Shown piece after piece: positions 3,910 through 23,774 of a stretch of DNA of 64,000 nt. The stretch covers positions 2,784-66,783 of the forward strand of contig JBAQNM010000013.1 of the NCBI GenBank assembly GCA_049303795.1, read 5' to 3'. The notes beneath the pieces are model-generated. The model made no database searches. It saw only the letters and a program-made list of their open reading frames with translations, and had not been told where the DNA came from. How positions within the stretch are numbered: the first letter of the stretch is position 1; each line of letters opens with the position of its first letter. Made by a program: the position numbers and the translations under genes. Source of the DNA: Candidatus Moraniibacteriota bacterium (GTDB lineage: Bacteria; Patescibacteriota; Minisyncoccia; Moranbacterales; UBA2206).

Positions 3910-3913
3910 CATT

Positions 3914-7267: not shown

Positions 7268-8158
7268 GTGTGTCACAATGAAGTAAAGAGGCACACAAAA
7301 ATGCATAGGTATATAAAAAAATATATAGAATATCTTCGCATCGAAAAAGGATTGAGCGAAAATACGATTGAGATTTATACTAGGGACCTTTTGGAATTCG
7401 GAAAATTTATAAAAAAGTTATCGTTTAATAAATTGGCAAGGACTCACATTCGTGAGTTTCTTTGCTTTTTAGTAGAGAAAAACAATCAGCCGATAACTAG
7501 AAGAAGAAAAATGACATCAATTAAAAACTTCTTTGAATTTTTGGAGAATGAGGATTTGATAAAAAACAGTCCAGTTAAAAATATTGCAACATTAAAAGTT
7601 AAAGAAAATGAACCAAGTTATTTGACTGAACAGGAATTGAAAAAGTTAATCAAGGTTGTCAGTGAAGACAAATCTAAACATCAAGAAAGAAACAAATTGA
7701 TGATAAAGATTTTGATTGAAACAGGCATCAGAATTTCAGAGCTAACAAATTTAAGTGTTGGAGATATCGATACTAAATCTAGGATAATAATAGTCAAAAG
7801 AAAGGGTGGTCAAAAACAAAGCATTCCAATAAATATTGAGTTGGCGAAAAATATTAAGCAGTTGGCTAAAAATAAAGAAATATCTGAACCATTGTTTATG
7901 AGCAGTTTTAAAAAGAGAATTACACAAAGAAGAGTAGGGATGCTGGTTCAAAAATATCTGAAGCTAACAAGAATAACCAAACTGAATATTTCAGTCCATA
8001 GCTTACGTCATAGTTTTTGCTCGAGGTTATTGGAAAAAGGCGTGAATCTGAAAACGATTCAAATATTGGCTGGACACAAAAATATTTCGACTACTGAAAG
8101 ATATTTGCATATAGCCAAATCACGGCTCAGAAAGGAGGTGAGGCTGGCGGAAATTTGA
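7268..8158 (+). CDS. Tyrosine recombinase/integrase (XerC/D family)
   Basis: C-terminal catalytic box HSLRHSFCSRLLEKGVNLKTIQILAGHKNISTTERYLH (R..HxxR..Y). Confidence 0.85.
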   Translation: MCHNEVKRHTKMHRYIKKYIEYLRIEKGLSENTIEIYTRDLLEFGKFIKKLSFNKLARTHIREFLCFLVEKNNQPITRRRKMTSIKNFFEFLENEDLIKNSPVKNIATLKVKENEPSYLTEQELKKLIKVVSEDKSKHQERNKLMIKILIETGIRISELTNLSVGDIDTKSRIIIVKRKGGQKQSIPINIELAKNIKQLAKNKEISEPLFMSSFKKRITQRRVGMLVQKYLKLTRITKLNISVHSLRHSFCSRLLEKGVNLKTIQILAGHKNISTTERYLHIAKSRLRKEVRLAEI

Positions 8159-8218
8159 AGCACAAATTTGAAGATTGACCAAAGTTCTTTGATAAAGTAA
8201 TATTAAGATAATAAAATA

Positions 8219-8312
8219 CCAGTCGCAAAACCAACTAAGCTCTAAAAAGCTTGGGCTGGTCGTGTATATAAAGGGGCAACTCTGAAAGGTACACGACTGG
8301 TTTTGCGACTGG
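8219..8312. repeat. Nested inverted repeats: 15-bp perfect outer stem (8219-8233 / 8298-8312) enclosing an 8-bp inner stem (8259-8266 / 8290-8297). Candidate att core or structured RNA.
   Basis: CCAGTCGCAAAACCA vs TGGTTTTGCGACTGG and GTCGTGTA vs TACACGAC read directly from the sequence, 60 nt downstream of the integrase. Confidence 0.55.
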
Positions 8313-8320
8313 ACGTCCTG

Positions 8321-8340
8321 TAAGGGGTTGTCCCTTTTTG
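8321..8340 (+). terminator. Short hairpin plus T-run (AAGGG-GTTGT-CCCTT-TTTTG)
   Basis: 5-bp stem followed by TTTTTGTT. Confidence 0.3.
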
Positions 8341-8357
8341 TTATATAAAAAAATAAT

Positions 8358-8813
8358 ATGGAAAATAATAACTGGTCAAAATTAAGTCATCTGCAATTGG
8401 GAAAATACGGCGAGTATTTTGCTAAGATGGAATTTACTAAAGCTGGCTTTGATGTTTATACTTCAGAAGTGGATGACAAAGGAATAGATTTTGTGATTAG
8501 AAAAAACGAAAGCGAGCACTATGACATCCAAGTAAAATCTGTGCGGAATTACAATTATGTCTTTATGCGAAAAGAGGTTTTTACTCTCAGAAGAAACTTT
8601 CTGTTGGCTCTGGTGCTTTTTGAGGAAGGTGAACAGCCGACACTATGTCTCGTGCCATCTTTGGAATGGGAGAAAAAACGAGAAAAATTTTTCAGTGAAA
8701 ATGATTATGAAAATAAAAAGAGCCGACCAGAGTGGGGATTGAAAATATCTAAAAATAATGCAGAAGAGTTTAAGGGTATTTACGAATTTGATAAACAAAT
8801 TGCAAATCTATAA
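8358..8813 (+). CDS. PD-(D/E)xK-like nuclease fold protein (Hjc/restriction-endonuclease-like); tentative
   Basis: GEYFAKMEF ... DDKGIDFVI ... YDIQVKS is arranged like an E...D...(E/Q)xK core; 151 aa. Confidence 0.35.
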   Translation: MENNNWSKLSHLQLGKYGEYFAKMEFTKAGFDVYTSEVDDKGIDFVIRKNESEHYDIQVKSVRNYNYVFMRKEVFTLRRNFLLALVLFEEGEQPTLCLVPSLEWEKKREKFFSENDYENKKSRPEWGLKISKNNAEEFKGIYEFDKQIANL

Positions 8814-8830
8814 TTATTAAAAATAATAAA

Positions 8831-9289
8831 ATGGTGAATCTAATCTGTACGCTCTGCGGATACGCAGGCGAAATGAACAAAAAAGCAAGGGGAAATGGTC
8901 TTGTGGAATTTATCTTATGGTGTTTCTTTCTATTCCCAGGCATCATTTATTCAATCTGGAGCCGAGGGGGCAGTGGAAAAAAAGTTTGTCCAAAATGCGG
9001 AAGCACAACGATGATTCCAACTGACACTCCAATGGGGCAAAAACTGATGGCGGAACAGCGAAACAATCCTGATATTCATATAGAACCGACAAAATCAAAG
9101 GAAACTTCCAAGACGGCATTATATGCAATGTTTGTAGTTTTGGGAATTGTATTTATTTTTGTGATTATTTCATTCTCAACCTACAAGAAAGACGCTGAAA
9201 AAGCAGAAAATGAAATCAAGGCTCAGCAAACAATTCAGCAAAACTTACCAGCAGTTCAAGATGGCTCGCAAAAAACTAAGACTAAATAG
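8831..9289 (+). CDS. LITAF-like zinc-ribbon membrane protein
   Basis: CTLCG knuckle, 20-aa hydrophobic segment, CPKCG knuckle, then a second TM helix. Confidence 0.45.
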   Translation: MVNLICTLCGYAGEMNKKARGNGLVEFILWCFFLFPGIIYSIWSRGGSGKKVCPKCGSTTMIPTDTPMGQKLMAEQRNNPDIHIEPTKSKETSKTALYAMFVVLGIVFIFVIISFSTYKKDAEKAENEIKAQQTIQQNLPAVQDGSQKTKTK

Positions 9290-9297
9290 TATTTTTA

Positions 9298-9328
9298 AAA
9301 CCAGAGCTAAAACCCTGGTTTTTTTTAT
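9298..9328 (+). terminator. Weak intrinsic terminator
   Basis: ACCAGAG..CCCTGGT imperfect stem followed by T8. Confidence 0.4.
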
Positions 9329-9459
9329 GAAGTGGTATTAGTTGCCCAGTCTCAAGGAATAATCGCACACAAGTTAAAATTTGGCTAAATATGGGTATAT
9401 TTAGCTTTACTCAGAGCTTATTTCTTGCTAGAATTGAAGTATAAATAAGGTAAAAATCA

Positions 9460-10800
9460 ATGAAACAAGCAACGGCTCTGGATATTTTGAAATTGGGACA
9501 TAATGTGTTTTTGACGGGTCCTGCAGGAAGTGGAAAAACATATCTATTAAACCAATATATTCAATATCTTAAAAACAAAAAAATAGGAGTAGCGATAACA
9601 GCTTCAACTGGGATTGCTTCGACACATATGAATGGACAAACTATTCATAGCTGGTCAGGAATGGGCATTAAGGATATATTTACCGAAGCGGATTTTTCAA
9701 AACTTAAAAAAAGACATTTCTACACACAACGTCTCAAGAAAACTAAAGTGCTGATAATAGATGAGGTGTCTATGCTTCACGCTCATCAGTTGGACATTGT
9801 GAATAGTATCTGTAAAAGATTCAAAGAACCATTTTTCCCATTTGGAGGATTGCAAGTTATTCTTTGCGGAGATTTTTTTCAATTGCCTCCTGTGGCAAGA
9901 TATGGAAGCAGGGCAAAATTTGTCATTGAATCAAGAGCGTGGGATGAAATGAATTTGAGAATTTGTTATCTAGAAGAACAGCATCGACAAGAAGACAATC
10001 AAATGCTAAAAATCCTAAACGACATCAGAAGCAGGGCTTGCGACAGCGAAACGATGGGGTTGATTCTTTCCAGAGAAAATAAAACTATAAAAAACAACAT
10101 TGCTCCCACGAGATTATATACTCACAATGCTAATGTAGATGCTATCAATGATTTCGAATTGCAAAAAATCAAAGAAGAACCAAAAGAATTTTTAATGACT
10201 TCTACTGGCATAGAAAATTTAGTGACTACGATTAAGCGAGGGTGCCTGGCTCCTGAAAAACTTATTCTCAAAAAAGGTGCAGTGGTGATGTTTGTGAAAA
10301 ATAATTTTGAAAGAGGTTTTGTTAATGGCACACTCGGGGTTGTCACTGATTTTGAGGAAAGTGGATTGCCAATAGTTCGAACACTTTCAGGCAAGATAAT
10401 TGTTGCTACTCCTGAAAAATGGTCTATTGATGAGGATGAAGTTATACTAGCTTCAGTGACACAAGTGCCACTTCGACTAGCGTGGGCAATCACAGTGCAT
10501 AAAAGTCAGGGGATGACACTAGACGCAGTGGAAATGGATTTGAGTAAATCATTTGAATATGGAATGGGTTATGTAGCTTTGTCGAGAGTTAGAAGATTGG
10601 ATGGTATAAAACTGCTAGGCATCAATGAAACTGCCTTAGAAGTTAATCCAGAAATGTGCGAAATGGACAAAGAATTGGAAAGGCTTTCAGATATAAATTC
10701 CAGTGAGATTAGCGCTATGGGATTTTTCGAAAAAAGAAAGAGACAGAAAGAATTCGTGGAAAAGAATGTTGGTAAGAAAGATTTGACTAAAAAAGTATAA
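9460..10800 (+). CDS. Pif1/RecD-like SF1B DNA helicase
   Basis: Walker A TGPAGSGKT, Walker B LIIDEVSML and C-terminal WAITVHKSQGMTLD typical of Pif1/RecD/TraA helicases. Confidence 0.8.
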   Translation: MKQATALDILKLGHNVFLTGPAGSGKTYLLNQYIQYLKNKKIGVAITASTGIASTHMNGQTIHSWSGMGIKDIFTEADFSKLKKRHFYTQRLKKTKVLIIDEVSMLHAHQLDIVNSICKRFKEPFFPFGGLQVILCGDFFQLPPVARYGSRAKFVIESRAWDEMNLRICYLEEQHRQEDNQMLKILNDIRSRACDSETMGLILSRENKTIKNNIAPTRLYTHNANVDAINDFELQKIKEEPKEFLMTSTGIENLVTTIKRGCLAPEKLILKKGAVVMFVKNNFERGFVNGTLGVVTDFEESGLPIVRTLSGKIIVATPEKWSIDEDEVILASVTQVPLRLAWAITVHKSQGMTLDAVEMDLSKSFEYGMGYVALSRVRRLDGIKLLGINETALEVNPEMCEMDKELERLSDINSSEISAMGFFEKRKRQKEFVEKNVGKKDLTKKV

Positions 10801-10857
10801 ATTCTTTACTTTATAGCTGGATGGCGGTATTATAATAATAGAAAAATATATTATCAT

Positions 10858-12354
10858 ATGGAAAAAATAACGCTTTCAGAACTGGAGCAATTTCTCTGGA
10901 AAAGTGCTGATATTCTCCGAGGAAAAATCGACTCCAGCGACTATAAAAAATACATATTTGGTCTGCTTTTCTATAAGCGGATAAATGACGTTTGGGCTGA
11001 AGAGCACGAGGCGTTTTTAAAGGAGTATAAAAATACAGGAGCGGAAGAAGAACCATTCCACCGATTTCAACTTCCTGAAGATGCTAAATGGGAAACGATT
11101 CAAAATGCTTCACAAGAAATTGGAATAAAATTAGACAAGGCTTTTGAAAAACTGACTAATGCTAATAGTCCGAAATTGGACAAGATTTTTGACGACCTTA
11201 ATTTTGCCGATTCAGATAGATTTCCAAATGATGTCATTCAAAAACTTATCAATCACTTCTCTCATTACAATTTCGGAGACACTTATGTGAATTCGGATAT
11301 TTTGGGAGACGCTTATGAATACCTGATTAAGCAATTTGCAGCCGATGCTGGAAAGAAGGGCGGAGAATTTTATACTCCACGAGAAGTTGAGCGTGTAATA
11401 GTTCAAATCTTGAAGCCTCACGAAAAAGACCATATATATGACCCAACTTGTGGCAGTGGAGGATTCCTATTGGAAGCATATCATTACGTTAAGGAAAAAT
11501 ATGGCGACAAGGCGATAAGAAAACTTTATCTCTATGGTCAGGAACTAAACATCGGAACTTATGCCATCGCCAAAATAAATATGTTTTTGCACGGATTGGA
11601 CGGAGCAGACATTAGAAGAGAGGACACATTAAAAGAGCCGTTATTTAAGGATGAGCTGGGAAACTTAAAAACGTTCGACATCGTGGTAGCAAATCCTCCG
11701 TATTCCATCAAAGAGTGGGCGTTTGAAACTTTTGAGGCAGACAAATATGGAAGACGAAATGGCTTCGATATGCCACCCACAAGAAACGCTGATTATGCAT
11801 TTATTTTGCATATGATTGCTTCGCTTAACCAAAACGGCAGGGCAGGTATTGTTCTTCCACACGGAGTGTTGTTTAGAGGCGGAACCGAAGGAAAGATTAG
11901 AAAACAAATAATCGAAAGAGATTTATTAGAGGCGGTAGTGGCATTACCAGTCAAACTTTTCTATGGCACTGGAATTCCAGCGTGCATATTGATTCTTAAT
12001 AAAAACAAGCTAAAAGAACATAAGGATAAGATTTTACTTATTGATGCCGAGAAGGATTATCTGGAGGGTAAAAATCAGAACAGTTTGCGAGAACAGGATA
12101 TTAAAAAAATAGTTAAAGCATTTGATAATTATCAGGACATTGAAAAATATGCAAGAATTATTGGACTGGATGAACTGAAGGAGAATGCTTTTAATCTCAA
12201 TGTTAGGCGGTATATTAAAAATGACGAAGATGAGGAAAAGATTGATGTAAACAAAGTTTGGAAAGAGCTAACAGAATTAGAAGATGAGAAAGATAAGATA
12301 AATAAAGATGTTGCTGGATATATTAAGAACCTTGGCTATCGAAATAATGATTAA
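10858..12354 (+). CDS. hsdM: Type I restriction-modification methyltransferase subunit
   Basis: HsdM N-terminal LWKSADILRG motif and catalytic NPPY (VVANPPYSIK). Confidence 0.9.
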   Translation: MEKITLSELEQFLWKSADILRGKIDSSDYKKYIFGLLFYKRINDVWAEEHEAFLKEYKNTGAEEEPFHRFQLPEDAKWETIQNASQEIGIKLDKAFEKLTNANSPKLDKIFDDLNFADSDRFPNDVIQKLINHFSHYNFGDTYVNSDILGDAYEYLIKQFAADAGKKGGEFYTPREVERVIVQILKPHEKDHIYDPTCGSGGFLLEAYHYVKEKYGDKAIRKLYLYGQELNIGTYAIAKINMFLHGLDGADIRREDTLKEPLFKDELGNLKTFDIVVANPPYSIKEWAFETFEADKYGRRNGFDMPPTRNADYAFILHMIASLNQNGRAGIVLPHGVLFRGGTEGKIRKQIIERDLLEAVVALPVKLFYGTGIPACILILNKNKLKEHKDKILLIDAEKDYLEGKNQNSLREQDIKKIVKAFDNYQDIEKYARIIGLDELKENAFNLNVRRYIKNDEDEEKIDVNKVWKELTELEDEKDKINKDVAGYIKNLGYRNND

Positions 12355-12359
12355 AAGTA

Positions 12360-13601
12360 ATGCAACAAATAAGAGAAAAGTTAAAAAAGGAATGGAAGAA
12401 ATACAAAGTGAAAGAACTTGGGTGTTTGTATGGTGGATTGACTGGCAAAAATAAAGACGATTTTGGTGAGGGTAAAAAGTTTATTCCGTATATGAATGTC
12501 TTTAGAAATAGCAGGATTGATGTTGAGAATATGAGTCTGGTCAAGATAGACGGAAAGGAGAGGCAGAATAAAGCTGTTTATGGTGATATATTTTTCACTG
12601 GGTCATCAGAAACGCCAGAAGATGTTGGAATGAGTTCCGTTCTTTTAGATGAATCTGAGGAGGATGTTTTTTTAAATAGTTTTTGTTTTGGATTGCGATT
12701 GAATAGTTTTGATGTGTTGATGCCAGAGTTTGCTAGATTTTTGTTTCGTTCCCCTGATTTGAGAAAAAAAATATCGCTACTTGCCCAAGGCTCAACCAGG
12801 TTCAATTTATCAAAAAAACACTTTTTAGATATAAATCTGAGTTTACCATCACTAAATGAACAGAAAAAGATTGCTAAAATTTTATTAAGAGTAGATGAGG
12901 ATATTGAAAATGTCGGTAAGACCATAAAGCAAACAATTAAATTGAAAAATGGATTGATGCAGGGGCTATTAACGAAGGGGATAGGACATAAAAAATTTAA
13001 GAAGACAAAATTGGGGATAATTCCAGAAGAATGGGATATCGCTTTGCTCGATTCCGTTGCGAAACGAGGCAGTGGACATACTCCAAGCAAATCAAAACCA
13101 AATTATTGGAACGGAGGTATCAAGTGGGTTTCTTTAGCTGATTCTTCTGAACTGGACAATAGATACATTTGTTCTACCGATAAGGAGATAAGTGAGGATG
13201 GGATAAAAAATTCATCGGCTGTGTTGCATCCAGCAGGAACTGTAATTTTATCTCGTGATGCAGGAGTAGGAAAGAGTGCGGTGTTATCTTGCGAGATGGC
13301 AGTAAGCCAGCATTTTATTGGTTGGCAGTGCGGTGACAGTCTAAGTAATTTCTATTTATATTATTTATTTCAAAATTGGAAGAGCGAGTTTGAAAGGATA
13401 GCCACAGGCACAACTATAAAAACAATAGGGTTGCAGTTTTTCAAAGACTTAAAGGTGCCATTGCCAAGCTATAAAGAGCAAAAAAAAATCGCAGATATTT
13501 TAACAAGAGTTGATGACAAAATCGATGTTTATAAAAGTATTAAATCAAAACTTGAAATTTTGAAAAAGGGATTGATGCAGGATTTATTTGTTAGTGATTA
13601 A
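12360..13601 (+). CDS. hsdS: Type I restriction-modification specificity subunit
   Basis: Two target-recognition domains separated by conserved LPxL.EQKKIA repeats (LPSLNEQKKIAKIL / LPSYKEQKKIADIL). Confidence 0.85.
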   Translation: MQQIREKLKKEWKKYKVKELGCLYGGLTGKNKDDFGEGKKFIPYMNVFRNSRIDVENMSLVKIDGKERQNKAVYGDIFFTGSSETPEDVGMSSVLLDESEEDVFLNSFCFGLRLNSFDVLMPEFARFLFRSPDLRKKISLLAQGSTRFNLSKKHFLDINLSLPSLNEQKKIAKILLRVDEDIENVGKTIKQTIKLKNGLMQGLLTKGIGHKKFKKTKLGIIPEEWDIALLDSVAKRGSGHTPSKSKPNYWNGGIKWVSLADSSELDNRYICSTDKEISEDGIKNSSAVLHPAGTVILSRDAGVGKSAVLSCEMAVSQHFIGWQCGDSLSNFYLYYLFQNWKSEFERIATGTTIKTIGLQFFKDLKVPLPSYKEQKKIADILTRVDDKIDVYKSIKSKLEILKKGLMQDLFVSD

Positions 13602-13606
13602 AAAAT

Positions 13607-14500: not shown

Positions 14501-15089
14501 CTCAAACAACTATAAAAAATTTACTTACTTTATTCTAGTTCTTATTGGAATAAGTTCCTTTGTCGTTTACAAAATGTTTGATTTGATAGAAGCAAATAAC
14601 ATAAAAATTCCATTTTATTTTTCCATTCCTTCTATTCCAGCGGTTTATGGTTTACTTTTCTTGGCGTTCGACAGGGTGCTGTGGAAATGGAAAATTTTTA
14701 GGATGCTTGGAATTATTACCGCTGATGATTTGAATGGAGAATGGGAGGGGACTGCCAAATCTTCTTTTGAAGAATTCAAAGAGGAAATAAAGGTTAAACT
14801 AAAAATAAAGCAAACCGCTACAGAAATGACAGTTTATGGTTGTTTTGATAATTCAAAATCAATTAGTCTGAATGCAAATTTTGAGAAAAATGATGTTGAT
14901 GATGGAGTGGCATTATTTTATTTTTATAGAAATCAGCCAGACTATGATGCCAAGGAAACAATGGCAATACACGAAGGTGCTACCAAGTTAATTTATAATA
15001 AACAAGATAATTCCCTGACAGGATTCTACTTCTCTGGAAGAAATAGAAATAATCACGGAACAATCAAGGTGTTTAAGGATAAGAAATAA
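14490..15089 (+). CDS. 2TM beta-rich effector, Cap15/S-2TMbeta-like; CBASS effector candidate
   Basis: Two N-terminal TM helices (FTYFILVLIGISSFVVY, IPAVYGLLFLAF) then a ~120-aa beta-rich soluble domain; start overlaps the cyclase stop by 11 nt. Confidence 0.5.
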   Translation: MKINSNNYKKFTYFILVLIGISSFVVYKMFDLIEANNIKIPFYFSIPSIPAVYGLLFLAFDRVLWKWKIFRMLGIITADDLNGEWEGTAKSSFEEFKEEIKVKLKIKQTATEMTVYGCFDNSKSISLNANFEKNDVDDGVALFYFYRNQPDYDAKETMAIHEGATKLIYNKQDNSLTGFYFSGRNRNNHGTIKVFKDKK

Positions 15090-15093
15090 CATT

Positions 15094-18012
15094 ATGAAAT
15101 TTAACGAACAGCACACCATAGAAAATCACATAATCAAATACTTCAAAAATGACTTGAAGTATGAATACATCAAACCTGAAGAGTTTGCTAAATTCAGGGA
15201 GTTTGAAAATGAATATCTGATTACTCCGCTTCTTCAGGAATCAATCAAAAAACTGAATGGCATTGATGACGATAATCTTGTCCAGCTTCTAACCAAGGAA
15301 CTTAAGAAGATAGACAATAACGAGGAATTTTTGATGGCTCTGCGGAACGGCATAAACTATAAAGACCCAGCGACTGGCAAAAAGACAGACTATAAGGTGG
15401 TTGATTTTGAAAATATAGACAATAACCGTTTTGTCGTTACCAATCAGTTCTATTTTGAAGGCAACGCTGAAAACATCAGACCAGATGTGATGGTATTCGT
15501 TAACGGCATTCCAGTATCTGATATTGAAGCCAAGAGTCCAACAGCATCTATTACAGTCAGCTGGGAGAACGCAGTCGGACAAATCAAGCGGTATGAGAAT
15601 GTTGCTCCAAGGATGTTTATCGCTAACTGTTTCAATGTGGTGACTGACGGAACGGAAAGTGGAACTCGCTATGCTTCTACTCATTCACCGATTCAATACT
15701 TTTTCCAGTGGAAAGACGAAGAGAATAAAGACAAGTTTGAGGGCAATCTGGAGCTGACACTTTGGAATCTATTTAACAAGAAGCAACTTTTGGATATTAT
15801 TCAAAACTTTATTGTCTTTGAGAAAGAAGGTGGAAAAGTAGTTAAGAAAGTTTGTCGCTACCAGCAGTATAGAGCATCCAATAAGATTTTAGACAGAGTT
15901 ATTAAAAACGAGAGCAAGAAAGGACTCGTTTGGCATACTCAAGGCTCTGGAAAATCAATGACGATGTTTTTCACGGCTTGGAAATTGCGTTATGCGAAGG
16001 AGCTGAAGAATCCGAAAGTCTTTATTTTGGTTGACCGCATTGATTTGGATGACCAACTGCACGACACATTCACGGCTTGCGGTGGTAAGAATGTGATGCG
16101 AGTCACTTCCAGAAAAGTTCTGGAAGATAAAATAACCAGCGATGAACGAGGGATATTTATCACAACCATCCAGAAGTTTTCCGAACTTGGGAAAAATATC
16201 GAAAATGAAGATAGTAACATTGTCGTCTTGACTGACGAGGCTCATCGCACCAATGAGGGAATATCAGGAATCAACGCTCGGTCATCACTCAAGAACGCTT
16301 TTTGGTTTGGCTTTACTGGAACACCGATTGATAGGACTACTCTGAACACGCATCGCAATTTTGGCGAGGAAGGGGAGCGGTATTTAGATTATTATTCTAT
16401 CCAGCAAGCGATTGACGATGGGGCGACTTTGCCAGTGTATTTTGAGACTCGCCTGTCCAAGTATTTCATAAACGAGGAAGGGCTGGATGAACAATTCGAT
16501 GAATTAACCAAAGGACTCACTGACAAGCAAAAGGAAGAACTGAAAAAGGCGTATGGCAAAAAAGAAGCGATTGTAAAATTGATTAAAAGGGTAGAAGCCG
16601 TTGCTGTCGATATTGCCGAGCATTACAAGATTTATATTTTGCCGAATAACTTTAAGGCTCAAGTGGTTTGCTATGATAAGGAGGCTTGTTTAATGTATAA
16701 AAAAGCGTTAGACAAGGTTATCCCAGAAAACTGGTCTAAGATAATTTATTCGACTGGGGATTTGAATGTTGAAGCGGATGAAATAAAGAAATACTACACG
16801 ACTAAGGATGAGAGAAAGAAATTCATCGAAGCCTTCAAAGACAAAAATCAAGACCCAAAGATTTTGATTGTCTGCGATATGTTGCTTACTGGATTTGACG
16901 CTCCGATTGAGCAGGTGATGTATTTAGATAAACCGCTTCTTGACCACAGCTTACTTCAAGCTATTGCCAGAACTAACCGAGTTTATCCGAACAAGGGTTG
17001 TGGTAAGGTTATCGACTATTACGGCATAACGAGAAGTTTGGAGAAAGCGTTAGATTTTGACGAGAGCATTATCAATTCCGCAATGATTGATATTGATAGG
17101 CTCAAAGAGCAGTTCCAAGAGAAATTGAAGGATTGTCTAGATATATTTGCTGGAATCAATATCGAAGACCCATCAATGGAGAATCTGCGAAGAAGCCTCC
17201 GCATCTTTGCCGATAACAGGGATAAGCAGAAAATGTTTGAAAATCTGTTCAGCAAAATCAAGCTGATATTTGAAATAATTTCTCCAGACCCATTCTTGAA
17301 GCCGTATGTAAGACAAGTAGAATGGCTCGCCAGTTTTTACATTGCTTATACCAGAGAATTCAAGGCACAAACTGATGAGGAAATCCGAATGGAAGAATAC
17401 GGTGAGAAAATCAAGAAACTTATTCAGGAGAAAATAGACTTGCAGGGAATCATCAGAACTTTCAGAGAAATAAATATAGGAGATTTATATCAAATCAAGC
17501 AATTGGAGAAGATGGAGGATGAAGACAAAGCAAGAGCATTGGAAAAGATGCTTAAGAGTGAAATCTCCATAAATCTGGATACGAATCCGACTTATGACAA
17601 ATTCAGCGAAAGGTTGATGAAAATCAAAAAGGACTTTGAGGATAATCAGATAGATTTGGATAAGAAAATCAAAGAACTTCAGAAATTGAGAGAGGACTTG
17701 GTGGACAAGAGGGATGAAGCCAAAAAACTCGGCTATAACTTGCAGGAATACGGCATTTACGTTATTTCACAGGAATTCATTGAGAATATAGATAGCAAAG
17801 AAACTAAGCCATTTATTCAGGATATGGTTGAGGCGATAACTGATACACTGGACACTGGTTGGCAAGAGTCGTCTAAAAAAGAAGAATTTATCAAGGAAAT
17901 TAGACGTAAATTAACCAAGCTGATTCTCAAGGATTATCAAGAAAAGATTAAGATTAAGGATTTTGCCAAATATCTTAATAGAATTATTGACGTAATCCAA
18001 AGGAAATTTTAA
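15094..18012 (+). CDS. hsdR: Type I restriction enzyme R subunit (SF2 helicase/endonuclease)
   Basis: 972 aa; DEAH-box-like LTDEAHRT and the other helicase motifs; typical HsdR N-terminal region. Confidence 0.9.
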   Translation: MKFNEQHTIENHIIKYFKNDLKYEYIKPEEFAKFREFENEYLITPLLQESIKKLNGIDDDNLVQLLTKELKKIDNNEEFLMALRNGINYKDPATGKKTDYKVVDFENIDNNRFVVTNQFYFEGNAENIRPDVMVFVNGIPVSDIEAKSPTASITVSWENAVGQIKRYENVAPRMFIANCFNVVTDGTESGTRYASTHSPIQYFFQWKDEENKDKFEGNLELTLWNLFNKKQLLDIIQNFIVFEKEGGKVVKKVCRYQQYRASNKILDRVIKNESKKGLVWHTQGSGKSMTMFFTAWKLRYAKELKNPKVFILVDRIDLDDQLHDTFTACGGKNVMRVTSRKVLEDKITSDERGIFITTIQKFSELGKNIENEDSNIVVLTDEAHRTNEGISGINARSSLKNAFWFGFTGTPIDRTTLNTHRNFGEEGERYLDYYSIQQAIDDGATLPVYFETRLSKYFINEEGLDEQFDELTKGLTDKQKEELKKAYGKKEAIVKLIKRVEAVAVDIAEHYKIYILPNNFKAQVVCYDKEACLMYKKALDKVIPENWSKIIYSTGDLNVEADEIKKYYTTKDERKKFIEAFKDKNQDPKILIVCDMLLTGFDAPIEQVMYLDKPLLDHSLLQAIARTNRVYPNKGCGKVIDYYGITRSLEKALDFDESIINSAMIDIDRLKEQFQEKLKDCLDIFAGINIEDPSMENLRRSLRIFADNRDKQKMFENLFSKIKLIFEIISPDPFLKPYVRQVEWLASFYIAYTREFKAQTDEEIRMEEYGEKIKKLIQEKIDLQGIIRTFREINIGDLYQIKQLEKMEDEDKARALEKMLKSEISINLDTNPTYDKFSERLMKIKKDFEDNQIDLDKKIKELQKLREDLVDKRDEAKKLGYNLQEYGIYVISQEFIENIDSKETKPFIQDMVEAITDTLDTGWQESSKKEEFIKEIRRKLTKLILKDYQEKIKIKDFAKYLNRIIDVIQRKF

Positions 18013-18569
18013 TGAAGAAGCAAATCAAACTACAAAACAAAAAAGTAGATTACATCGTGAAGAAAAGCAAGCGAGCCAAGAGGCTTCGGTTGGCAATCTA
18101 TTGCGATGGAAGTTTTGTGGTTACTGCTCCAAATGGATTGGATACAATCAAGATAGAAAATTATATTTTACAAAAAGCGGAATGGGTTTTGGAAAAACTG
18201 AGGATAATGAAGAAGCGAAGCCATAATCCTGTATTTACGAAACGAAGCGATAAGGAATATCTGGAACTGCGAGACGAGGCACTGGTGATGGCTCAGAGGA
18301 AAGTGAGTAAATTCAATAAGGTTTACGGATTCAAGTTTAATAAGATTGCAATCAAAAATCAAAAGACCAGATGGGGAAGCTGTTCTAAAAAGGGAAATTT
18401 GAATTATAACTACAAGATTGCACTGCTTCCAGAAAAATCAGCCGATTACATCATTGTTCACGAGCTGTGCCATCTCAAAGAATTCAATCACAGCAGAAAG
18501 TTTTGGAACTTAGTAGAAAGGGTGTTGCCTGATTACAAGGAGCGAATAGAGAAAATAAAGAAATTATAA
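18012..18569 (+). CDS. DUF45/YgjP-family metal-dependent hydrolase (WLM-like HExxH), the hsdR-associated type
   Basis: HELCHLKEFNHS HExxH motif; ATGA stop/start overlap with hsdR. Confidence 0.7.
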   Translation: MKKQIKLQNKKVDYIVKKSKRAKRLRLAIYCDGSFVVTAPNGLDTIKIENYILQKAEWVLEKLRIMKKRSHNPVFTKRSDKEYLELRDEALVMAQRKVSKFNKVYGFKFNKIAIKNQKTRWGSCSKKGNLNYNYKIALLPEKSADYIIVHELCHLKEFNHSRKFWNLVERVLPDYKERIEKIKKL

Positions 18570-18573
18570 AAAG

Positions 18574-19335
18574 ATGTCTGAATACTACAAAGCAAAAAGA
18601 ACACGAAACATTTTTGACCCAAAGTCAAAAGAACCATTCAAATTGAGTCGCTCAAAAATTGACTTGTTTTTGAATTGTCCTCGTTGTTTTTATATGGACA
18701 GAAGATTGGGAGTTGGGCGTCCACCCGGATTTCCTTTTAATCTTAATTCAGCTGTTGACGCTTTGCTCAAAAAAGAATTTGATATTTATCGAGCCAAGAA
18801 AACCACACATCCCTTGATGGAAGAATATGGAATTGATGCTGTGCCATATCAAAGCGAAAAAATGGACGAGTGGCGAGATTCGTTGCGAAGAGGAATCCAA
18901 CACCTTCACGAAAAAACAAACCTGTTGCTTACTGGTGGGGTGGATGATGTTTGGGTAAATCCTAACGGCGAATTGATAATAGTGGATTATAAGGCTACTT
19001 CAAAGAATGGAGAAGTTAGTCTGGATGCTGATTGGCAGATTGGATACAAAAGGCAGATGGAGATGTATCAATGGCTGTTTAGAAAAAATGGATTTAAGGT
19101 TGCTGAGACTGGCTATTTTGTCTATTGCAACGGAGATGCGGACAAAGAAGCCTTTGATGGCAAGTTAGAGTTTGATATAAAGGTTATTCCGTATAAAGGG
19201 GATGACAGCTGGGTAGAAAACACATTGGCAGATGTAAAAAAGTGCCTAATGAGTTCTGAAATACCAAAAGCATCAAATGATTGTGATTATTGCAATTATG
19301 TTATGGCAGTGAATAGCGTGGAAAAACGTAAATAA
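18574..19335 (+). CDS. Cas4-like / RecB-family PD-(D/E)xK nuclease with Fe-S cysteines; standalone
   Basis: IIVDYKAT core motif; N-terminal CPRCF and C-terminal C..CDYC cysteines match the Cas4 1+3 Cys pattern. Confidence 0.6.
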   Translation: MSEYYKAKRTRNIFDPKSKEPFKLSRSKIDLFLNCPRCFYMDRRLGVGRPPGFPFNLNSAVDALLKKEFDIYRAKKTTHPLMEEYGIDAVPYQSEKMDEWRDSLRRGIQHLHEKTNLLLTGGVDDVWVNPNGELIIVDYKATSKNGEVSLDADWQIGYKRQMEMYQWLFRKNGFKVAETGYFVYCNGDADKEAFDGKLEFDIKVIPYKGDDSWVENTLADVKKCLMSSEIPKASNDCDYCNYVMAVNSVEKRK

Positions 19336-19363
19336 TTTAGAGTAGTCATTTAAGGAGGTTTAA

Positions 19364-19387
19364 AACGGGGAATACCCTGTTTTTTTG
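19364..19387 (+). terminator. Intrinsic terminator
   Basis: CGGGG-AATA-CCCTG hairpin followed by T7. Confidence 0.4.
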
Positions 19388-19436
19388 TTGACAATCAGTG
19401 TGGTTATGTTAGAATTAGGTAAGTTAATACCATAAC
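19388..19436 (+). promoter_or_regulatory. Sigma70-like promoter (TTGACA-16 nt-TAGAAT) with an operator-like 7-bp inverted repeat (GGTTATG / CATAACC) flanking the -10
   Basis: TTGACA 19388-19393 and TAGAAT 19410-19415; inverted-repeat arms at 19402-19408 and 19430-19436; lies just upstream of the repressor gene. Confidence 0.5.
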
Positions 19437-19448
19437 CTAACAATAAAA

Positions 19449-20084
19449 ATGAATAATAACGAACTTTTAACGCTTAAAGAAGCTTGCAAATTGCTCAATT
19501 GCCATCCTAACACACTTCGTAAGTGGGCTGATGATGGCAAAGTTCAGGCAATTAGATTCGGAAAAAGAGGCGACAGACGCTTCAGGGCACAGGATATTGT
19601 AAAAAGTATGCAGAAGCCAATCGCAGAAAAAGAACAAGAGATTCGTTACGAGAAAGAGAATGAAGTTCTAATACCATTACGTGGTATAGCCTCGTGCGGA
19701 ACCCCAGAATTTTATGCTCAGGACAATATTGATGATTATATAAGTGTTAGTAGGAGTCTTATTAAGGATGAGCGAGATAGATATTATTTTCTCCGTGCTT
19801 CGGGAACGTCAATGCTTCAGGCTGGGATAAGCGATTCATCCCTTGTTTTAGTTTTTCAAAAAGATTATTACGAAAATGGCGATGATGTTGTTGCGGTGCT
19901 TGATGGAACTGCTTGTATTAAAAGATTTTATAAGGGTAAATCCGCTCTAATGCTAATGCCCGTGACAAATGACGAATCTCATAAACCTATTGTAACTAAT
20001 GAGAATGTCCACATAGCCGGGAAAGTAGTTTGCTCAATTCCAGTTCCGAATAGTGATGAAATTCAATATATCCCTGTTTTTTAA
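19449..20084 (+). CDS. HTH plus S24 peptidase repressor (LexA/phage CI-like)
   Basis: N-terminal MerR/excisionase-type HTH (LTLKEACKLLNCHPNTLRKWA); C-terminal S24 catalytic Ser (ASGTSM) and Lys (CIKRFYKGK). Confidence 0.75.
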   Translation: MNNNELLTLKEACKLLNCHPNTLRKWADDGKVQAIRFGKRGDRRFRAQDIVKSMQKPIAEKEQEIRYEKENEVLIPLRGIASCGTPEFYAQDNIDDYISVSRSLIKDERDRYYFLRASGTSMLQAGISDSSLVLVFQKDYYENGDDVVAVLDGTACIKRFYKGKSALMLMPVTNDESHKPIVTNENVHIAGKVVCSIPVPNSDEIQYIPVF

Positions 20085-20136
20085 ATATCTTCCAGCTGGG
20101 CTGGCTTGATATATATAATCATTAAAGAAAAACCAA

Positions 20137-20259
20137 ATGGCAAAGATAAAAACGGTTCACCGTAGTTCTGTCAGTGGTAGGTTTGTCAAAAAAGGACAAG
20201 TAAAAAAAAGTCCTCGCACAACCGAGACTGAACGCATTCGCACAAGGCGATGTAAATAA
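20137..20259 (+). CDS. Small basic ORF (40 aa, MAKIKTVHRSSVSGRFVKKGQVKKSPRTTETERIRTRRCK); speculative
   Basis: ATG 22 nt after a TATAAT at 20114-20119 and followed by an 8-bp perfect hairpin (20267-20298). It competes with minus-strand ORF 20122-20400. Confidence 0.25.
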   Translation: MAKIKTVHRSSVSGRFVKKGQVKKSPRTTETERIRTRRCK

Positions 20260-20332
20260 AAAGAGCGACCGAGATTGCTTTGGAAGGTGGTCTCGGTCAC
20301 CCTCTCTAACTAACCTAACTATATCACAAAAA

Positions 20333-20743
20333 ATGGAAAGCGAAAAACATAATTCTCTAGTAAGAGAATTGGCAAGTATTTTTGGGAAAAATGGATTCAA
20401 TGTTTATGCAGTTGATGGAGTAACAGTGAAATGTCCTAGTGCTGTAGAAAATAACAATAATATAGGAGATTGCCAAAACAAAATTCCTGATATTGAGGCT
20501 TATGATGAACTTAATAAAAGAGTAATTAGAGGAGAAGCAAAGATAGGCAATGGGGATATTGAGTCTGAACATTCAATAACTCAATATAAATTATTTTCAA
20601 GCTTGAATAAAAATGGCGTTGATTCTTGGGTATATATTATTATCCCGCAAGGAGAAAAAATGTTTCTTGAAAAAGTCTTAGCTGAAAATGTGTTACAGAA
20701 GTTTCTAGATAATATTGGAATCATTGAATCTGCTAATTATTAG
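20333..20743 (+). CDS. Hypothetical protein
   Basis: 136-aa ORF, co-directional. Confidence 0.4.
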   Translation: MESEKHNSLVRELASIFGKNGFNVYAVDGVTVKCPSAVENNNNIGDCQNKIPDIEAYDELNKRVIRGEAKIGNGDIESEHSITQYKLFSSLNKNGVDSWVYIIIPQGEKMFLEKVLAENVLQKFLDNIGIIESANY

Positions 20744-21040
20744 AACTCAAAGATGAAACTTATAAGTTACAGCTTAATAAACTCTATAAAAAAAATTATT
20801 CTTTCAATTTTTCCTATTAAAGTTACCAACAGTAATAATAGGAAAATTATTAACAAAAAAATATATGACAAAAGTAACAAAACCGAACAAAGAATTTTGG
20901 GAAACGGAGAAAAGACCATCGTATATGAAAATTTCTAAAATAAAAAATGATAAAAGTGAAGATGGTTATATCATCAGATTTAAAACTGAAAAATCAAAAA
21001 AGAAGAAATTAAAAAGCTAGGGATAAAGATATAAAATCTA

Positions 21041-21388
21041 ATGAAAGAAATTGTATGCAAAAAGTGTGAAACTAAACTGCCTGATGAAAAATCAGTTTGT
21101 CTAAAATGTGGAAATAAGAGCAAATTGTATAAAGTTGCTATTACTGACGTCGTCACTTTTACTGAAAACTTTGGAATAAAACAAAAAGCTAAAGGCTTCA
21201 AAAATTTTATGGTTGAATTTATTTCAAGGCATAAGAGCAGTGGCGATATACAGAAGTATCCTGAAGGGGTCATTGAAGAAAGAAGGATTGATAAGGGAAA
21301 CAAAACTTATTATCAGAAAGTGATTGATAAGAAAACAGGAAAAGTTACTCATTTTGAAAACGAGTCATTATTAAAACATAAGGATTAA
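21041..21388 (+). CDS. Zinc-ribbon hypothetical protein
   Basis: N-terminal CKKCETK...CLKCG knuckles; 115 aa. Confidence 0.4.
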   Translation: MKEIVCKKCETKLPDEKSVCLKCGNKSKLYKVAITDVVTFTENFGIKQKAKGFKNFMVEFISRHKSSGDIQKYPEGVIEERRIDKGNKTYYQKVIDKKTGKVTHFENESLLKHKD

Positions 21389-21394
21389 TCTAAA

Positions 21395-22666
21395 ATGGAT
21401 ATACTAAACAAACCAATTGAATATTTTAAATTTGAAGATGTAGTCGCGTTTTGCGAAAAAGGATATAGAGAAGGATTTCAAATTGATTATAAGCGGGATT
21501 ATTCTTCAAAAGGATTATCAAAACATATAGTGGCTTTATCCAATAGTAGGGGTGGAGTAATTATAATTGGAGTGGAGGAAGATATTAAAACGGGATTTCC
21601 GAAAAGCTGGGATGGCATAGATACTGATGCGAAGCAAATAGAAAAATTACATCAAGAAATAGCAAATATTGAGCCATTTCCTTCTTGCATTGTTCACGCT
21701 ACAGATTCAAAAAATGATAAGTTTTTTATTTTAGTCAGGGTTTTTGCAGGATACAACACTCCTTATTATGTGCAAAATGATTCAAATGTCTATGTCAGAA
21801 CAGGGAATATTACAAAGCAAATAGACATTGCTTCTCCAGATGGACTGGAACTTATGTTTGGAAAGAAAGAGAAAGCTGAAAAATCTAGAAAAATATATCT
21901 GTCAATGGCTGATGAAATTTTTGACGCAAAGATATTAAAGAAAGAAGATGAAATAATAAGAGAGAGTAGAAAGGTGGGCGAGGAAGTTATTTTTAAAAGC
22001 AGAAGGTTTCTTATTGCAGATGTCTCTATATGTGAGATAACTATCCAGCCATTTTTTCCAGAAAAATCATTTGCTAATCCAAAAGAAATAAAAGATGGAA
22101 TTGATGAGATTAGATTTGGGAATGGAAATTTTACATTTCCTGAATTAAATTTATCACCTTCGCCAAAAGGAATTATGTTTTTTACCTTTCTGAAGCACAA
22201 TAGTTTAATTGAGTTTCAGCAAATTTTTGGTCAAGGACTAATTCAAAATAAATTTACTATTTCGGTATTAAACGAAGATACTGGATTTAAAATAGTGAGC
22301 CTTTGGAGAATGGCTGTTAGAATTTTCGGTGTATTTCAATTTGCCAAGAAATTTTATAACAAATATGGTTACAGCGGAGTGTTAATAGGAAGAATAAATT
22401 TGGCTGGCTTAGATGGTGCATTTGCAAGGCAATTAACGCCCGCTGGTCGTGATTTTTGGGAAAAAGATAGGGAGTGTTTGCTTACTGAATGTAACTGGGA
22501 CATAAGAATTGATACTAATATTTTAAATAATGAAGAGGATTTAAAAAAATACTTTATAAATTTATTGAGAGAAATTTATTGGGATTTAGGATTTGAAAAT
22601 ATTATGGAAGATGTTGTTGACGATTTCTTGAAACAAAGTGGCCTATCTTTTGAAGTGGATAACTAA
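21395..22666 (+). CDS. AlbA_2 (Schlafen-like) domain protein
   Basis: HIVALSNSRGGVIIIGVEED matches the AlbA_2 core (AfaN..GG.lliGV.D); 423 aa with an uncharacterised C-terminal half. Confidence 0.55.
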   Translation: MDILNKPIEYFKFEDVVAFCEKGYREGFQIDYKRDYSSKGLSKHIVALSNSRGGVIIIGVEEDIKTGFPKSWDGIDTDAKQIEKLHQEIANIEPFPSCIVHATDSKNDKFFILVRVFAGYNTPYYVQNDSNVYVRTGNITKQIDIASPDGLELMFGKKEKAEKSRKIYLSMADEIFDAKILKKEDEIIRESRKVGEEVIFKSRRFLIADVSICEITIQPFFPEKSFANPKEIKDGIDEIRFGNGNFTFPELNLSPSPKGIMFFTFLKHNSLIEFQQIFGQGLIQNKFTISVLNEDTGFKIVSLWRMAVRIFGVFQFAKKFYNKYGYSGVLIGRINLAGLDGAFARQLTPAGRDFWEKDRECLLTECNWDIRIDTNILNNEEDLKKYFINLLREIYWDLGFENIMEDVVDDFLKQSGLSFEVDN

Positions 22667-23618
22667 TTTGACTTATTTTCTCACGAAGGTAACATCGAAC
22701 AAATCGATGTTATTTTTTAAAAAACAAAATTCAATAAAAATTAGTGAAGCTGGAAAGAAATATCTGGATTATTGTGAATTGGAAAAAGAGATGAGTCCTG
22801 CTTCAATTTATGAATACAGTAAAGTTATAAAATGGACGGTGGAAATATTAGGTAACCTTGAGGCTGGGAAAATAAAGGAAGAGCATATTGCAGAACTTAA
22901 GAAAGAATATAACAGAAGAGAATTGATGCCAACCACAAGAGCTCATAACTTATCTGTTATCAGAGAACTATTGAGATTTTGTCAGGATGAATTGCATATC
23001 AAAGTAATGGATTTTGAAAAAATAAAAAGACCAAAGATTCCAAAAAGAAGAGTTGATTATCTCACAGAAGAAGAATTGAAAAGGTTTTTTGATTCAATCG
23101 GAAAACGCAGTATCAGAGATTCTAGATTTAGAGCGTTTATTTCAGTTCTTATTTCCACGGGCTGTCGAATAAGTGAAGCATTGAATCTGAAAATTCAAGA
23201 TATGGATTGGGAGAGAAAAGAAGTGACCATTGTTGGTAAAGGCAACAAACAAAGAAAATTATATTTTACTGAATGGTCATTGAAATGTATCAGGGAATAT
23301 ATTGAAAAAAGAGGCTATGAAGGAAAATTTATTTTTGTAGCTGAAAGCAAGACAAATCGCTGGGATAGAAATGATGCTCAGCGGAATTTCAGAAATTATC
23401 GCAGGAAGCTAGGATTATCTGCAAACTTCACTGCTCACACAATTCGTCACAGCTTCGCTACGCTTCTTATGAAAAAAGGTGTCAGTCTCGGACATATTCA
23501 AGTTTTGCTCGGGCATTCAGACATCCAAACCACCAGCAAACACTATCTGGGAATTTTGAGTGATGACGAAGCTAAGCAGGCACACGAAAAGGGGATGAAT
23601 ATGAATAATTGGGTATAA
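22638..23618 (+). CDS. Tyrosine recombinase/integrase (XerC/D family). GTG start in the ORF track; an ATG at 22707 is an alternative.
   Basis: HTIRHSFATLLMKKGVSLGHIQVLLGHSDIQTTSKHYL catalytic box; RISEALNL arginine box. Confidence 0.85.
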   Translation: MAYLLKWITNLTYFLTKVTSNKSMLFFKKQNSIKISEAGKKYLDYCELEKEMSPASIYEYSKVIKWTVEILGNLEAGKIKEEHIAELKKEYNRRELMPTTRAHNLSVIRELLRFCQDELHIKVMDFEKIKRPKIPKRRVDYLTEEELKRFFDSIGKRSIRDSRFRAFISVLISTGCRISEALNLKIQDMDWERKEVTIVGKGNKQRKLYFTEWSLKCIREYIEKRGYEGKFIFVAESKTNRWDRNDAQRNFRNYRRKLGLSANFTAHTIRHSFATLLMKKGVSLGHIQVLLGHSDIQTTSKHYLGILSDDEAKQAHEKGMNMNNWV

Positions 23619-23661
23619 TTAGAGCATAAAAACGTTATAATTGGCTGAAAAATAAGATAAG

Positions 23662-23770: not shown

Positions 23771-23774
23771 ACTT

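Follow-up and report, generated by a model that had tools for sequence, protein, structure and literature searches.

Defence hotspots, at which unrelated anti-phage systems replace each other at one position beside an integrase, have been described for P2-like prophages and for satellites of the P4 type (Rousset et al. 2022, as cited in PMC12259885, and as outlined in bioRxiv 10.1101/2021.01.21.427644). The present study concerns a stretch of 64,000 nucleotides (nt) of a Candidatus Moraniibacteriota bacterium, a member of the Candidate Phyla Radiation (CPR), comprising positions 2,784-66,783 (forward strand) of contig JBAQNM010000013.1 and referred to below as the window, and in particular the interval between two tyrosine recombinase genes, Int1 and Int2 (7268-23618), in which restriction-modification (R-M) and other defence genes are gathered. 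It is probable that this interval is the accessory half of a family of phage-derived integrative elements of Candidatus Moranbacteria, with a structured RNA at the head of the cargo.

Hotspots of the P2, P4 and phage-inducible chromosomal island type would be the closest analogue of the locus. Common to both are a conserved backbone with a single integrase-adjacent position for interchangeable defence systems, packaging genes without capsid genes, and cargo that is placed terminally, close to the junction with the chromosome. The Moranbacteria element differs in its CPR host, in its four tyrosine recombinases, in the presence of both the small (TerS) and the large (TerL) terminase subunit, in having no recognisable replication module, in its location by a 16S rRNA gene and in the structured RNA at the start of the hotspot.

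CPR bacteria possess tiny genomes in which CRISPR is rare and for which a high defence-gene density has been reported (PMC12259885). The present data suggest one route by which defence genes are exchanged in this group, the right half of a conserved element acting as a swap-shop for R-M, cyclic-oligonucleotide-based anti-phage signalling (CBASS) and other systems across many Moranbacteria species. Full-text literature searches aimed at the element or at the RNA retrieved no description of either; new here are a mobile-element defence hotspot in an under-studied phylum and a candidate structured RNA with a switch-like architecture, while the recurrent nesting of extra defence genes in R-M operons represents a further outcome.

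The conserved backbone

Gene identities were deduced from an open reading frame (ORF) map and from profile scans with Pfam, PADLOC and PHROGs, and L-numbers are the labels of the loci or contigs that were compared. An earlier note on this DNA had placed tyrosine integrases at 7268-8158 and 22638-23618, and both were borne out by their Pfam matches and intact motifs. Int1 (+ strand; ORF 7268-8158, started by gene callers at the ATG at 7301, 285 amino acids (aa); Phage_integrase 4.9e-39, SAM_1 4.9e-18) is a XerC/D-like recombinase and the final gene of the backbone, and Int2 (+ strand; ORF 22638-23618, called from 22707, 303 aa; Phage_integrase 1.9e-38), also XerC/D-like and of the IntA/IntB type, is the last gene before the chromosomal flank. 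Direct reading of the translations revealed the catalytic motifs R..K..HxxR..H..Y in both proteins. Two further tyrosine recombinases, IntA and IntB, lie just left of the window, as seen on the sister contig L014, and all four have kept intact catalytic motifs. Int2 shares 76% identity with the recombinase at the equivalent position (before the gene fic) in L076/L085; with IntA and IntB it shares 35-37%.

The right part of the backbone occupies positions 1-7253 (+ strand) and encodes, according to Pfam and PHROGs, a radical-SAM protein, proteins of 348, 121 and 86 aa, a D12 (Dam-like) methyltransferase, ParB_N, TerS (phrog_9452), TerL (phrog_9, 3e-55) and a 159-aa protein. Small regulators are likewise counted as part of the conserved set. 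TerL is a genuine large terminase, and its best match among deposited phages is 28% identical. No capsid, portal or tail genes and no primase or replication genes were recognised in the Pfam and PHROGs scans, no phage DNA match was obtained among 50,697 phage records, and IMG/VR contained no close relative of Int1. We infer that the backbone is phage-derived. Satellites of the PICI or P4 kind would combine an integrase and genes for redirected packaging with a replication module and induction by a helper phage, and would be devoid of structural genes; integrases, TerS and TerL are present in the element, but since no replication module or helper phage is known, membership of a satellite family is not claimed.

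A genome-collection scan with Int1 yielded five metagenome-assembled genome (MAG) species in which Int1 is 72-83% identical, three of them titled Moranbacteria or Moraniibacteriota. Comparison of all window proteins with these five loci by tblastn established a shared order of IntA/IntB (one or two), small proteins, D12, ParB_N, TerS, TerL, a protein of ~150 aa and Int1, and the identical frame recurs in five further contexts (Int1 50-60% identical; one a 1.27-Mb genome); the loci with this backbone order are L019-L023, L076/L085, L081, L083, L084 and L086. Altogether, the succession of genes from IntA and IntB to Int1 is syntenic in at least 11 related genomes. In every context examined Int1 follows TerL and a protein of ~145-159 aa, and with its constant position it is the best-conserved gene of the terminase module across the five MAG species. 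At E<1e-30 the Int1 family comprises 155 proteins of 45-100% identity, and all entries that name a taxon belong to Moranbacteria/Moraniibacteriota or the Parcubacteria group. The backbone is also mosaic, as methyltransferase, ParB and TerS share 68-79% identity with their counterparts in some relatives but 33-38% with those in others. Identical copies of the window sequence are present in several independent assemblies and MAGs, and an assembly artefact is therefore excluded.

The proposed mobile unit and its flanks

What is variably present or absent seems to be the IntA→Int2 block in its entirety, ~27-30 kb between the 16S rRNA trailer and fic. On the right of this block, the fic upstream region and fic itself (+ strand; 23648-24842, with fic at 23775-24842) are conserved across relatives, fic being 76-91% identical in 120 clusters among the matches listed, of which the named ones are Moranbacteria/Moraniibacteriota, Parcubacteria group or 'bacterium'. 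The block is delimited because of the following observations. In L077 the 16S rRNA gene and its ~470-nt trailer stand directly before fic, recombinase, terminase and RNA all being absent, and homology to the window starts at 23648, 30 nt past the Int2 stop. In L079 the sequence that elsewhere precedes IntA (the trailer end and the ~19 first codons of a small ORF) is fused directly to the fic upstream region at …AATGATATAA…, a junction that reads as an empty-site-like hybrid. In L081, L023 and L074, IntA directly adjoins the 16S 3' end, which is on its left. Finally, contig JBINOE010001063.1 bears two diverged copies (L083 and L086) of the recombinase-terminase-Int1-RNA-cargo architecture, ~31-33 kb apart, which differ in R-M cargo (HinP1I versus FokI) and in RNA class (one class 1, the other class 2; see below).

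The empty site that the earlier note had hoped to obtain by alignment with relatives was thus encountered for the IntA→Int2 unit (L077, L079), and none was seen among the compared genomes for the 15-kb part between Int1 and Int2 alone. Int1 itself, which had been proposed as an integrase of a ~15-kb element, belongs to the upstream terminase module, and it is the IntA→Int2 block that varies. Insertion at this place is further illustrated by L074 (Moranbacteria GW2011_GWF2_35_54), in which an insertion of ~4 kb with three opposite-strand ORFs is located between the 16S trailer and IntA (9880-13760) and is bounded by a ~30-nt direct repeat, TTTCCAGGGAGTGWTTTTATGCATTTTT, the uninterrupted site being found in L081; site-specific insertion therefore happens next to IntA. 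In the model that we favour, the whole IntA→Int2 block, ~27-30 kb long and lying between the 16S rRNA trailer and fic where both sides are visible, would integrate and excise by tyrosine recombination.

Genomic islands integrate at the 3' ends of tRNA and tmRNA genes and may form tandem arrays such as tycheposons. The Moranbacteria locus would resemble these in that recombinases lie by a stable-RNA gene, several elements accumulate at a single site and a short stretch copied from the RNA 3' end is met again further on; it differs in that the gene concerned is, unusually, that of 16S rRNA and in that a repeat pair is not seen at both ends within one genome. No tRNA or tmRNA genes are present in the window. 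The recurrent copy is found at 25553-25860 (+ strand), where the last ~16 nt of 16S rRNA and the trailer start (GAATCACCTCCTTTCTAGGGAG, exact at 25556-25577) are followed by an element of ~250 nt. This element is a paralogue of the true 16S trailer, with which it has an AAYCGCAWAAG box and a terminator in common, and covariation is observed in 19/57 predicted pairs. The 16S-trailer copy stands after fic, or after fic and other genes, in three genomes (the window, L076:18745-18981, and L079:7213-7399 and 11085-11271), and it could represent the distal attachment (att) repeat of a nested element of larger size, with the 16S 3' end as its target.

Several contigs end within this region. In sister assemblies, ends near 9400-9640 and one at 23718 were considered as island borders and rejected: the former are near a module border at 9361 but scattered, and the latter was discarded because the assembly of another species (L080, ~5 nt further on) also starts there, in a repeat-rich operator region. 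The fic upstream region, inside which the contigs of two species begin, contains three or four TGATATAA(A/T) repeats and a hairpin, AATGGCTTATTATAGCCATT, at 23655-23775, conserved in the window, L076, L077 and L079; these repeats look like an operator array for the Fic protein, which bears a helix-turn-helix (HTH) domain.

The conserved frame might also be explained as a domesticated prophage remnant, inherited vertically by the rRNA gene and serving as a fixed defence hotspot, whose cargo would be swapped by homologous recombination through the Int1/RNA and fic flanks and whose recombinases would be relics or have another role. One frame at one place in many species, with Int1 best conserved, would suit such a remnant, as would the unrecognised structural and replication genes (Pfam, PHROGs), the failure to find att repeats, the lack of a close Int1 relative or an RNA copy in IMG/VR, and the broken IntA of L085. 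Against this stand the intact catalytic motifs of all four recombinases, the presence/absence polymorphism at the 16S-fic site with its clean hybrid junction in L079, the two diverged copies on one contig, the phage-like mosaicism of the backbone genes and the repeat-flanked 4-kb insertion by IntA in L074, which demonstrates active site-specific integration; domestication is regarded as unlikely.

A candidate structured RNA downstream of Int1

The nested inverted repeat that the earlier note had recorded after the first integrase is real and far exceeds chance expectation (z = -7.8, 0/200 shuffles as stable). The att-like structure for which it was taken is instead a promoter-bearing structured RNA, apparently transcribed, with compensatory changes and present in 11 or more loci. 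A sequence scan located a sigma-70-like promoter (TTGACC-17 nt-TAATAT) at 8175-8204 (+ strand), of which both hexamers and, in the spacer, the core AGTTCTTT have been kept in an alignment of six species; the promoter region is homologous in L071 too, where the upstream gene encodes a serine recombinase. The RNA of the window, here designated class 1 (~130 nt), extends over 8215-8345 (+ strand) as judged by its fold, a covariance model and covariation. Within it, the inverted repeat (8219-8312) is predicted to adopt a three-way junction composed of P1 (8219-8232 with 8299-8312), P2, a hairpin of variable sequence (8235-8254), and P3 (8256-8267 with 8289-8300). The minus strand folds more weakly (z = -5.7), and the + strand is favoured because several pairs are G-U.

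The P3 loop GGGGCAAC (8273-8280) is complementary over 8 bp to GUUGUCCC (8327-8334), permitting a loop-to-tail pseudoknot. Both stretches are invariant, and GUUGUCCC also constitutes the loop and 3' half of a weak terminator (8322-8336), which is followed by a U-tract. The pseudoknot competes with an alternative in which the P3 loop forms a local hairpin (AGGG-GCAA-CUCU) and the terminator is made. Covariation was computed on nine distinct RNA sequences, in which 98.5% of cells are paired, compared with 34-43% when the partners are slid, and 16 pairs have changed on both sides. P1 is 100% paired with 6/10 pairs covarying, P3 is 96% paired with 9/12 pairs covarying, and the pseudoknot is 100% paired in the nine sequences; in L022 four positions co-change, and local hairpin, terminator and pseudoknot are all still possible.

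Promoter and RNA are kept as a unit after Int1 in all five relatives. The covariance model detected the RNA in 11 distinct loci, in nine of which it follows Int1 at a fixed distance, the remaining two being L071, where it follows a large serine recombinase, and L038, where it follows HepT/MNT, TOTE and AbiE genes. The island upstream of the latter copy (L038:2414-6785) encodes HepT/MNT, a TOTE-system AEP-helicase fusion and AbiEii, and the RNA itself precedes a long secreted protein with a GDSL-lipase domain. A larger and different RNA, class 2, is situated at the post-Int1 position in L081 (10933-11125, z = -7.7) and L083 (10940-11110, z = -8.4); its copies differ by compensatory changes, and its loop GCUCUCCG is complementary over 8 bp to the downstream CGGGGAGC.

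Rfam 15 (4227 families) gave no match in the window at gathering thresholds, and the best sub-threshold matches to 8100-8420 were eukaryotic snoRNA and lncRNA models with E values of 0.1 or worse. A metagenome pattern scan for the RNA returned 49 matches that were mostly due to chance, five loci being true, and the single pattern match in IMG/VR was not the RNA, of which no copy was found there. The RNA is uncatalogued and, as a comparatively predicted structure, a well supported candidate for a new structured RNA motif. Other RNA types were considered and rejected: no reverse transcriptase is present as would be required for a retron, neither tandem RNA repeats nor a conserved downstream protein are present as for a type III toxin-antitoxin system, and the single copy per locus does not agree with integron attC sites.

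Attenuation of transcription by riboswitches and leaders is well known, and the put RNA of phage HK022 mediates processive antitermination. The Moranbacteria RNA would be analogous in that a promoter-proximal, covarying structured domain is combined with an alternative pairing over an intrinsic terminator just upstream of genes; it differs in matching no Rfam family and in the lack of any functional relation among its downstream genes, and no ligand or protein partner can be deduced. In each class-1 locus checked (the window, L021, L023, L038 and L076) a coding gene begins 13-35 nt past the U-tract. Taken together, the covariation, the mutually exclusive terminator and anti-terminator pairings and the spacing to the gene lead us to read the RNA as a putative cis-acting attenuator or antiterminator leader at the cargo head, and the coherent downstream regulon that is usual for metabolite riboswitches is not observed. 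Pairing of the P3 loop with the 3' tail would block the terminator and allow transcription to read into the cargo, local folding of the loop would allow the terminator to form, and the RNA would in this manner gate transcription from a fixed promoter into whatever cargo adjoins it downstream. Homology of the window to L021, L023, L038 and L071 stops at 8348-8358, that is, at the RNA 3' end, which may therefore also mark a recombination boundary.

A further-reaching proposal is that Int1, promoter and RNA form an expression platform dedicated to exchangeable defence cassettes in a phage-satellite-like CPR element, where a fixed promoter is combined with a switch RNA of a new class (in two structural variants) that gates read-through and perhaps senses a phage or element signal or the recombinase. 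Such a platform would be integron-like in function, built of unrelated parts and anchored at the 16S rRNA gene; we advance it as speculation to which little credence is given at present. The locus does not conform to an integron, since the covariance model finds the structured element once per locus and not between cassettes, the cargo blocks have their own promoters and terminators, and Int1 is XerC/D-like.

The RNA might, as a second alternative, be a host small-RNA gene with a trans-acting function that has served, like tRNA and tmRNA genes, as an integration anchor beside which various elements have landed. It has its own promoter and terminator, its neighbours include recombinases of two unrelated families and, elsewhere, no recombinase at all, and both of its sides are variable, which would favour this proposal. 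The proposal is at odds with its position after Int1 at a fixed distance in nine of the 11 class-1 loci and with the substitution of class-2 RNA at that position in some elements. In L077 and L079, which are without the element, the RNA was not found within 10 kb of fic, the adjoining gene 13-35 nt downstream in each class-1 locus checked leaves no room for a promoter, and a conserved competition of pseudoknot with terminator typifies cis-acting switches. A host small RNA accordingly seems rather improbable to us.

Turnover of the defence cargo

The content 3' of Int1 and the RNA differs in every genome and consists mostly of R-M systems and other defence genes (about 10 related loci). Type III R-M is present in L019, L022 and L081, and in L020 with an embedded PIN_12 gene; L021 carries DpnII R-M, a LexA-like repressor, SMODS/AGS_C, SLFN and Macro genes; Type I R-M is found in L023, where an OLD nuclease is embedded in it, and together with PDDEXK_1 in L084; L083 carries Dcm/HinP1I/Vsr, S24 and KAP; and L086 FokI R-M, S24, an AAA_15 ATPase and SLFN. 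In L076/L085 the cargo is limited to a 117-aa protein and a KAP NTPase (3.3 kb), followed by the Int2 orthologue (76%) and fic. The earlier suggestion of a defence island tied to mobile-element genes is supported by this hypervariability between Int1 and Int2.

The turnover proceeds module by module. The segment corresponding to window positions 10858-19335 is swapped for Type III R-M in L019, while the DNA on its two sides is closely similar to that locus: the Pif1-helicase block (9361-10860) is 89.7% identical to L019, with an L023 match from 9357, and identity to L019 amounts to 96% over window 18940-20710. An identity of 89.7% is reached with L021 over window 21023-22703. DNA identity of the backbone to relatives is merely 70-78%, compared with 90-96% in the cargo blocks (L019, L021), and block borders recur at 8845, 9357-9361, 10860, 18940 and 22703. 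Adjacent defence systems (Type I R-M, CBASS and candidates) thus vary in content between conserved flanks, and the conserved frame combined with module-wise exchange argues for a hotspot and not for a one-off insertion. Syntenic conservation in distant relatives, which the earlier note had regarded as incompatible with an island, holds for the frame and does not hold for the cargo; as a whole, the interpretation offered there is partly supported. In the model that we favour, cargo modules, each with its own promoter and terminator, would be swapped between related elements by recombination.

The Pif1 block is a separately exchanged module. With a common left border it lies directly upstream of R-M genes, of Type I or Type III, in three genomes (window 9361-10860, L019:12590-14091, L023:11118-12440), which suggests that the Pif1 block and R-M are functionally linked.

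Within the window, essentially every gene that had been named between the integrases, all of them defence- or mobile-associated and on the + strand, was recovered by the ORF map, Pfam and PADLOC, the LITAF-like protein by motif only. The first cargo gene encodes a small PD-(D/E)xK protein (8358-8813; weak DUF4365/Mrr_cat matches and a phrog_5018 match), a nuclease also found directly after the RNA in L019, L020 and L022 (84-93% aa identity) and absent from L021, L023, L076 and L084. It is followed by a two-transmembrane (2TM) zinc-ribbon protein (8831-9289) that matched no profile model and whose LITAF likeness is based on its CxxC-hydrophobic-CPxC motif, and by a terminator read from the sequence near 9300-9328. 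Next come the Pif1 block (Pfam Pif1 4.9e-39) and the R-M operon described below. A terminator (19362-19383) and a strong promoter (19388-19415), located by sequence scan, divide this operon from a part containing an HTH_17+S24 LexA-like repressor (19449-20084; Pfam), two small ORFs (20333-20743 and 20753-20938), a Zn-ribbon protein that is the third of the three small ORFs (21041-21388), a Schlafen/AlbA_2 protein (21395-22666; SLFN_AlbA_2 match) and Int2.

A CBASS embedded in a Type I R-M operon

The operon at 10858-19335 has the order HsdM-HsdS-CD-NTase-Cap15-HsdR, then YgjP/DUF45 and PDDEXK_1, with intergenic gaps of 0-6 nt or overlaps. HsdM (10858-12354; N6_Mtase 6e-113 with HsdM_N), HsdS (12360-13601; Methylase_S with two target-recognition stretches) and HsdR (15094-18012; HSDR_N, SWI2_SNF2, T1R_D3) are all present at full length and constitute a Type I R-M system. 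Inserted between hsdS and hsdR, at distances of 5-6 nt or with overlaps, are genes for a CD-NTase (13607-14500; PADLOC cyclase 1.8e-99) and a 199-aa Cap15 2TM effector (14490-15089; PADLOC 2TM effector 8.5e-54, Pfam Cap15_CD_rec 1.9e-24), which overlap by 11 nt. A CD-NTase and a Cap15 cyclic-dinucleotide receptor in one operon, without Cap2 or Cap3, represent by gene content a type I (two-gene) CBASS. In these respects the pair resembles known type I CBASS with Cap15, from which the window copy, recognised here from its genes, differs in being placed inside an R-M operon of a CPR genome. The operon is completed by YgjP/DUF45 (18012-18569; 1e-42) and a Cas4-like PDDEXK_1 nuclease (18574-19335; PDDEXK_1 match, weak Cas4 matches). 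From the gene spacing, the R-M system and the embedded CBASS are predicted to be co-regulated.

Defence genes embedded in R-M operons have been documented, as for TgvAB within the Type I R-M system of VPI-2 (PMC11411939), and further embedded systems are attributed to Payne et al. 2024 as cited there. As with TgvAB, a second defence system is located between the modification/specificity and the restriction genes of one operon; the difference is that the embedded system is here a minimal CBASS with a Cap15 membrane effector. Unrelated genes are nested in the R-M operons of hotspot relatives as well, namely PIN_12 between Type III mod and res (L020:9918-15686), an OLD-family nuclease between hsdM and hsdS in L023 (12610-18398) and a 133-aa ORF between hsdM and hsdS in L084 (13748-19824). 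The arrangement of CBASS in a Type I operon and the PIN_12 and OLD embeddings of relatives add to the examples of defence genes nested in R-M operons. A phase-variable Type I system, in which a recombinase shuffles hsdS copies, was ruled out by the single hsdS and the absence of inverted hsdS fragments.

Evaluation of the proposed element

Certain observations weigh against the integrative element proposed here. No single genome displays an excision product, a circular form or an att duplication; the left end of the window's copy lies beyond the contigs, which stop inside IntA; and the deduction of att sites is founded on cross-species comparison. No replication or structural genes were recognised, and the word satellite is therefore used by analogy. 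Conservation of the frame at one locus in many species also fits vertical inheritance of a domesticated region, and the left side of L076/L085 is rearranged and without 16S. As for the RNA, its occurrence after a serine recombinase (L071) and, with no adjacent recombinase, after toxin-antitoxin/TOTE genes (L038) means that it is not strictly tied to Int1, the genes downstream of it are heterogeneous, unlike those of a metabolite riboswitch, and its terminator stem is only 5-6 bp long, the leader role being read from sequence.

The borders of a smaller element were also sought. No long direct or inverted repeats bracketing 8.2-23.7 kb were found, and the att pair for which the earlier note had recommended a search did not materialise in credible form: the sole repeat bracketing this interval is an AT-rich exact 15-mer at 8341 and 23695, and a search for att repeats within one genome (L085/L076) failed, the left end being rearranged there. 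GC content and GC skew, in which a discontinuity had been anticipated, have no break at the proposed borders, and composition is uninformative. The remaining alternative, a discrete island of ~15 kb (or two) bounded by Int1 and Int2, with the inverted repeat at 8160-8350 as att, and mobilised independently by one of these recombinases or both, for instance through integration at the 3' terminus of the RNA gene, is quite doubtful: the RNA 3' end does coincide exactly with the end of conservation, the cargo is closed by Int2 in the window and L076/L085 (with a recombinase fragment at this position in L083), the LexA-like repressor and Int2 resemble a minimal lysogeny module, and the 15-mer is exact, but its copies lie in conserved regions (the fic upstream region, in which a similar though not identical stretch is present in the island-free L077, and the RNA-nuclease spacer), the equivalent junctions of L076 have no shared repeat, the supposed att is a covarying RNA gene with a promoter that occurs once per element and not at both ends, cargo-free genomes are also without Int1, RNA and terminase module, and the cargo changes piecemeal at several internal borders and not as a single unit.

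Other features of the window

After the 16S-trailer copy, positions 26675-28504 encode a UvrD-family helicase with GajB-like and NERD+UvrD PADLOC matches, for which no GajA partner was seen; the same gene is found there in L076. Further downstream, a 55-nt direct repeat (91% identical; 50187-50241 and 52145-52199) is located upstream of two ORFs of ~220 aa (50279-50935 and 52241-52909), and probably represents the duplicated promoter or leader that precedes paralogous genes.

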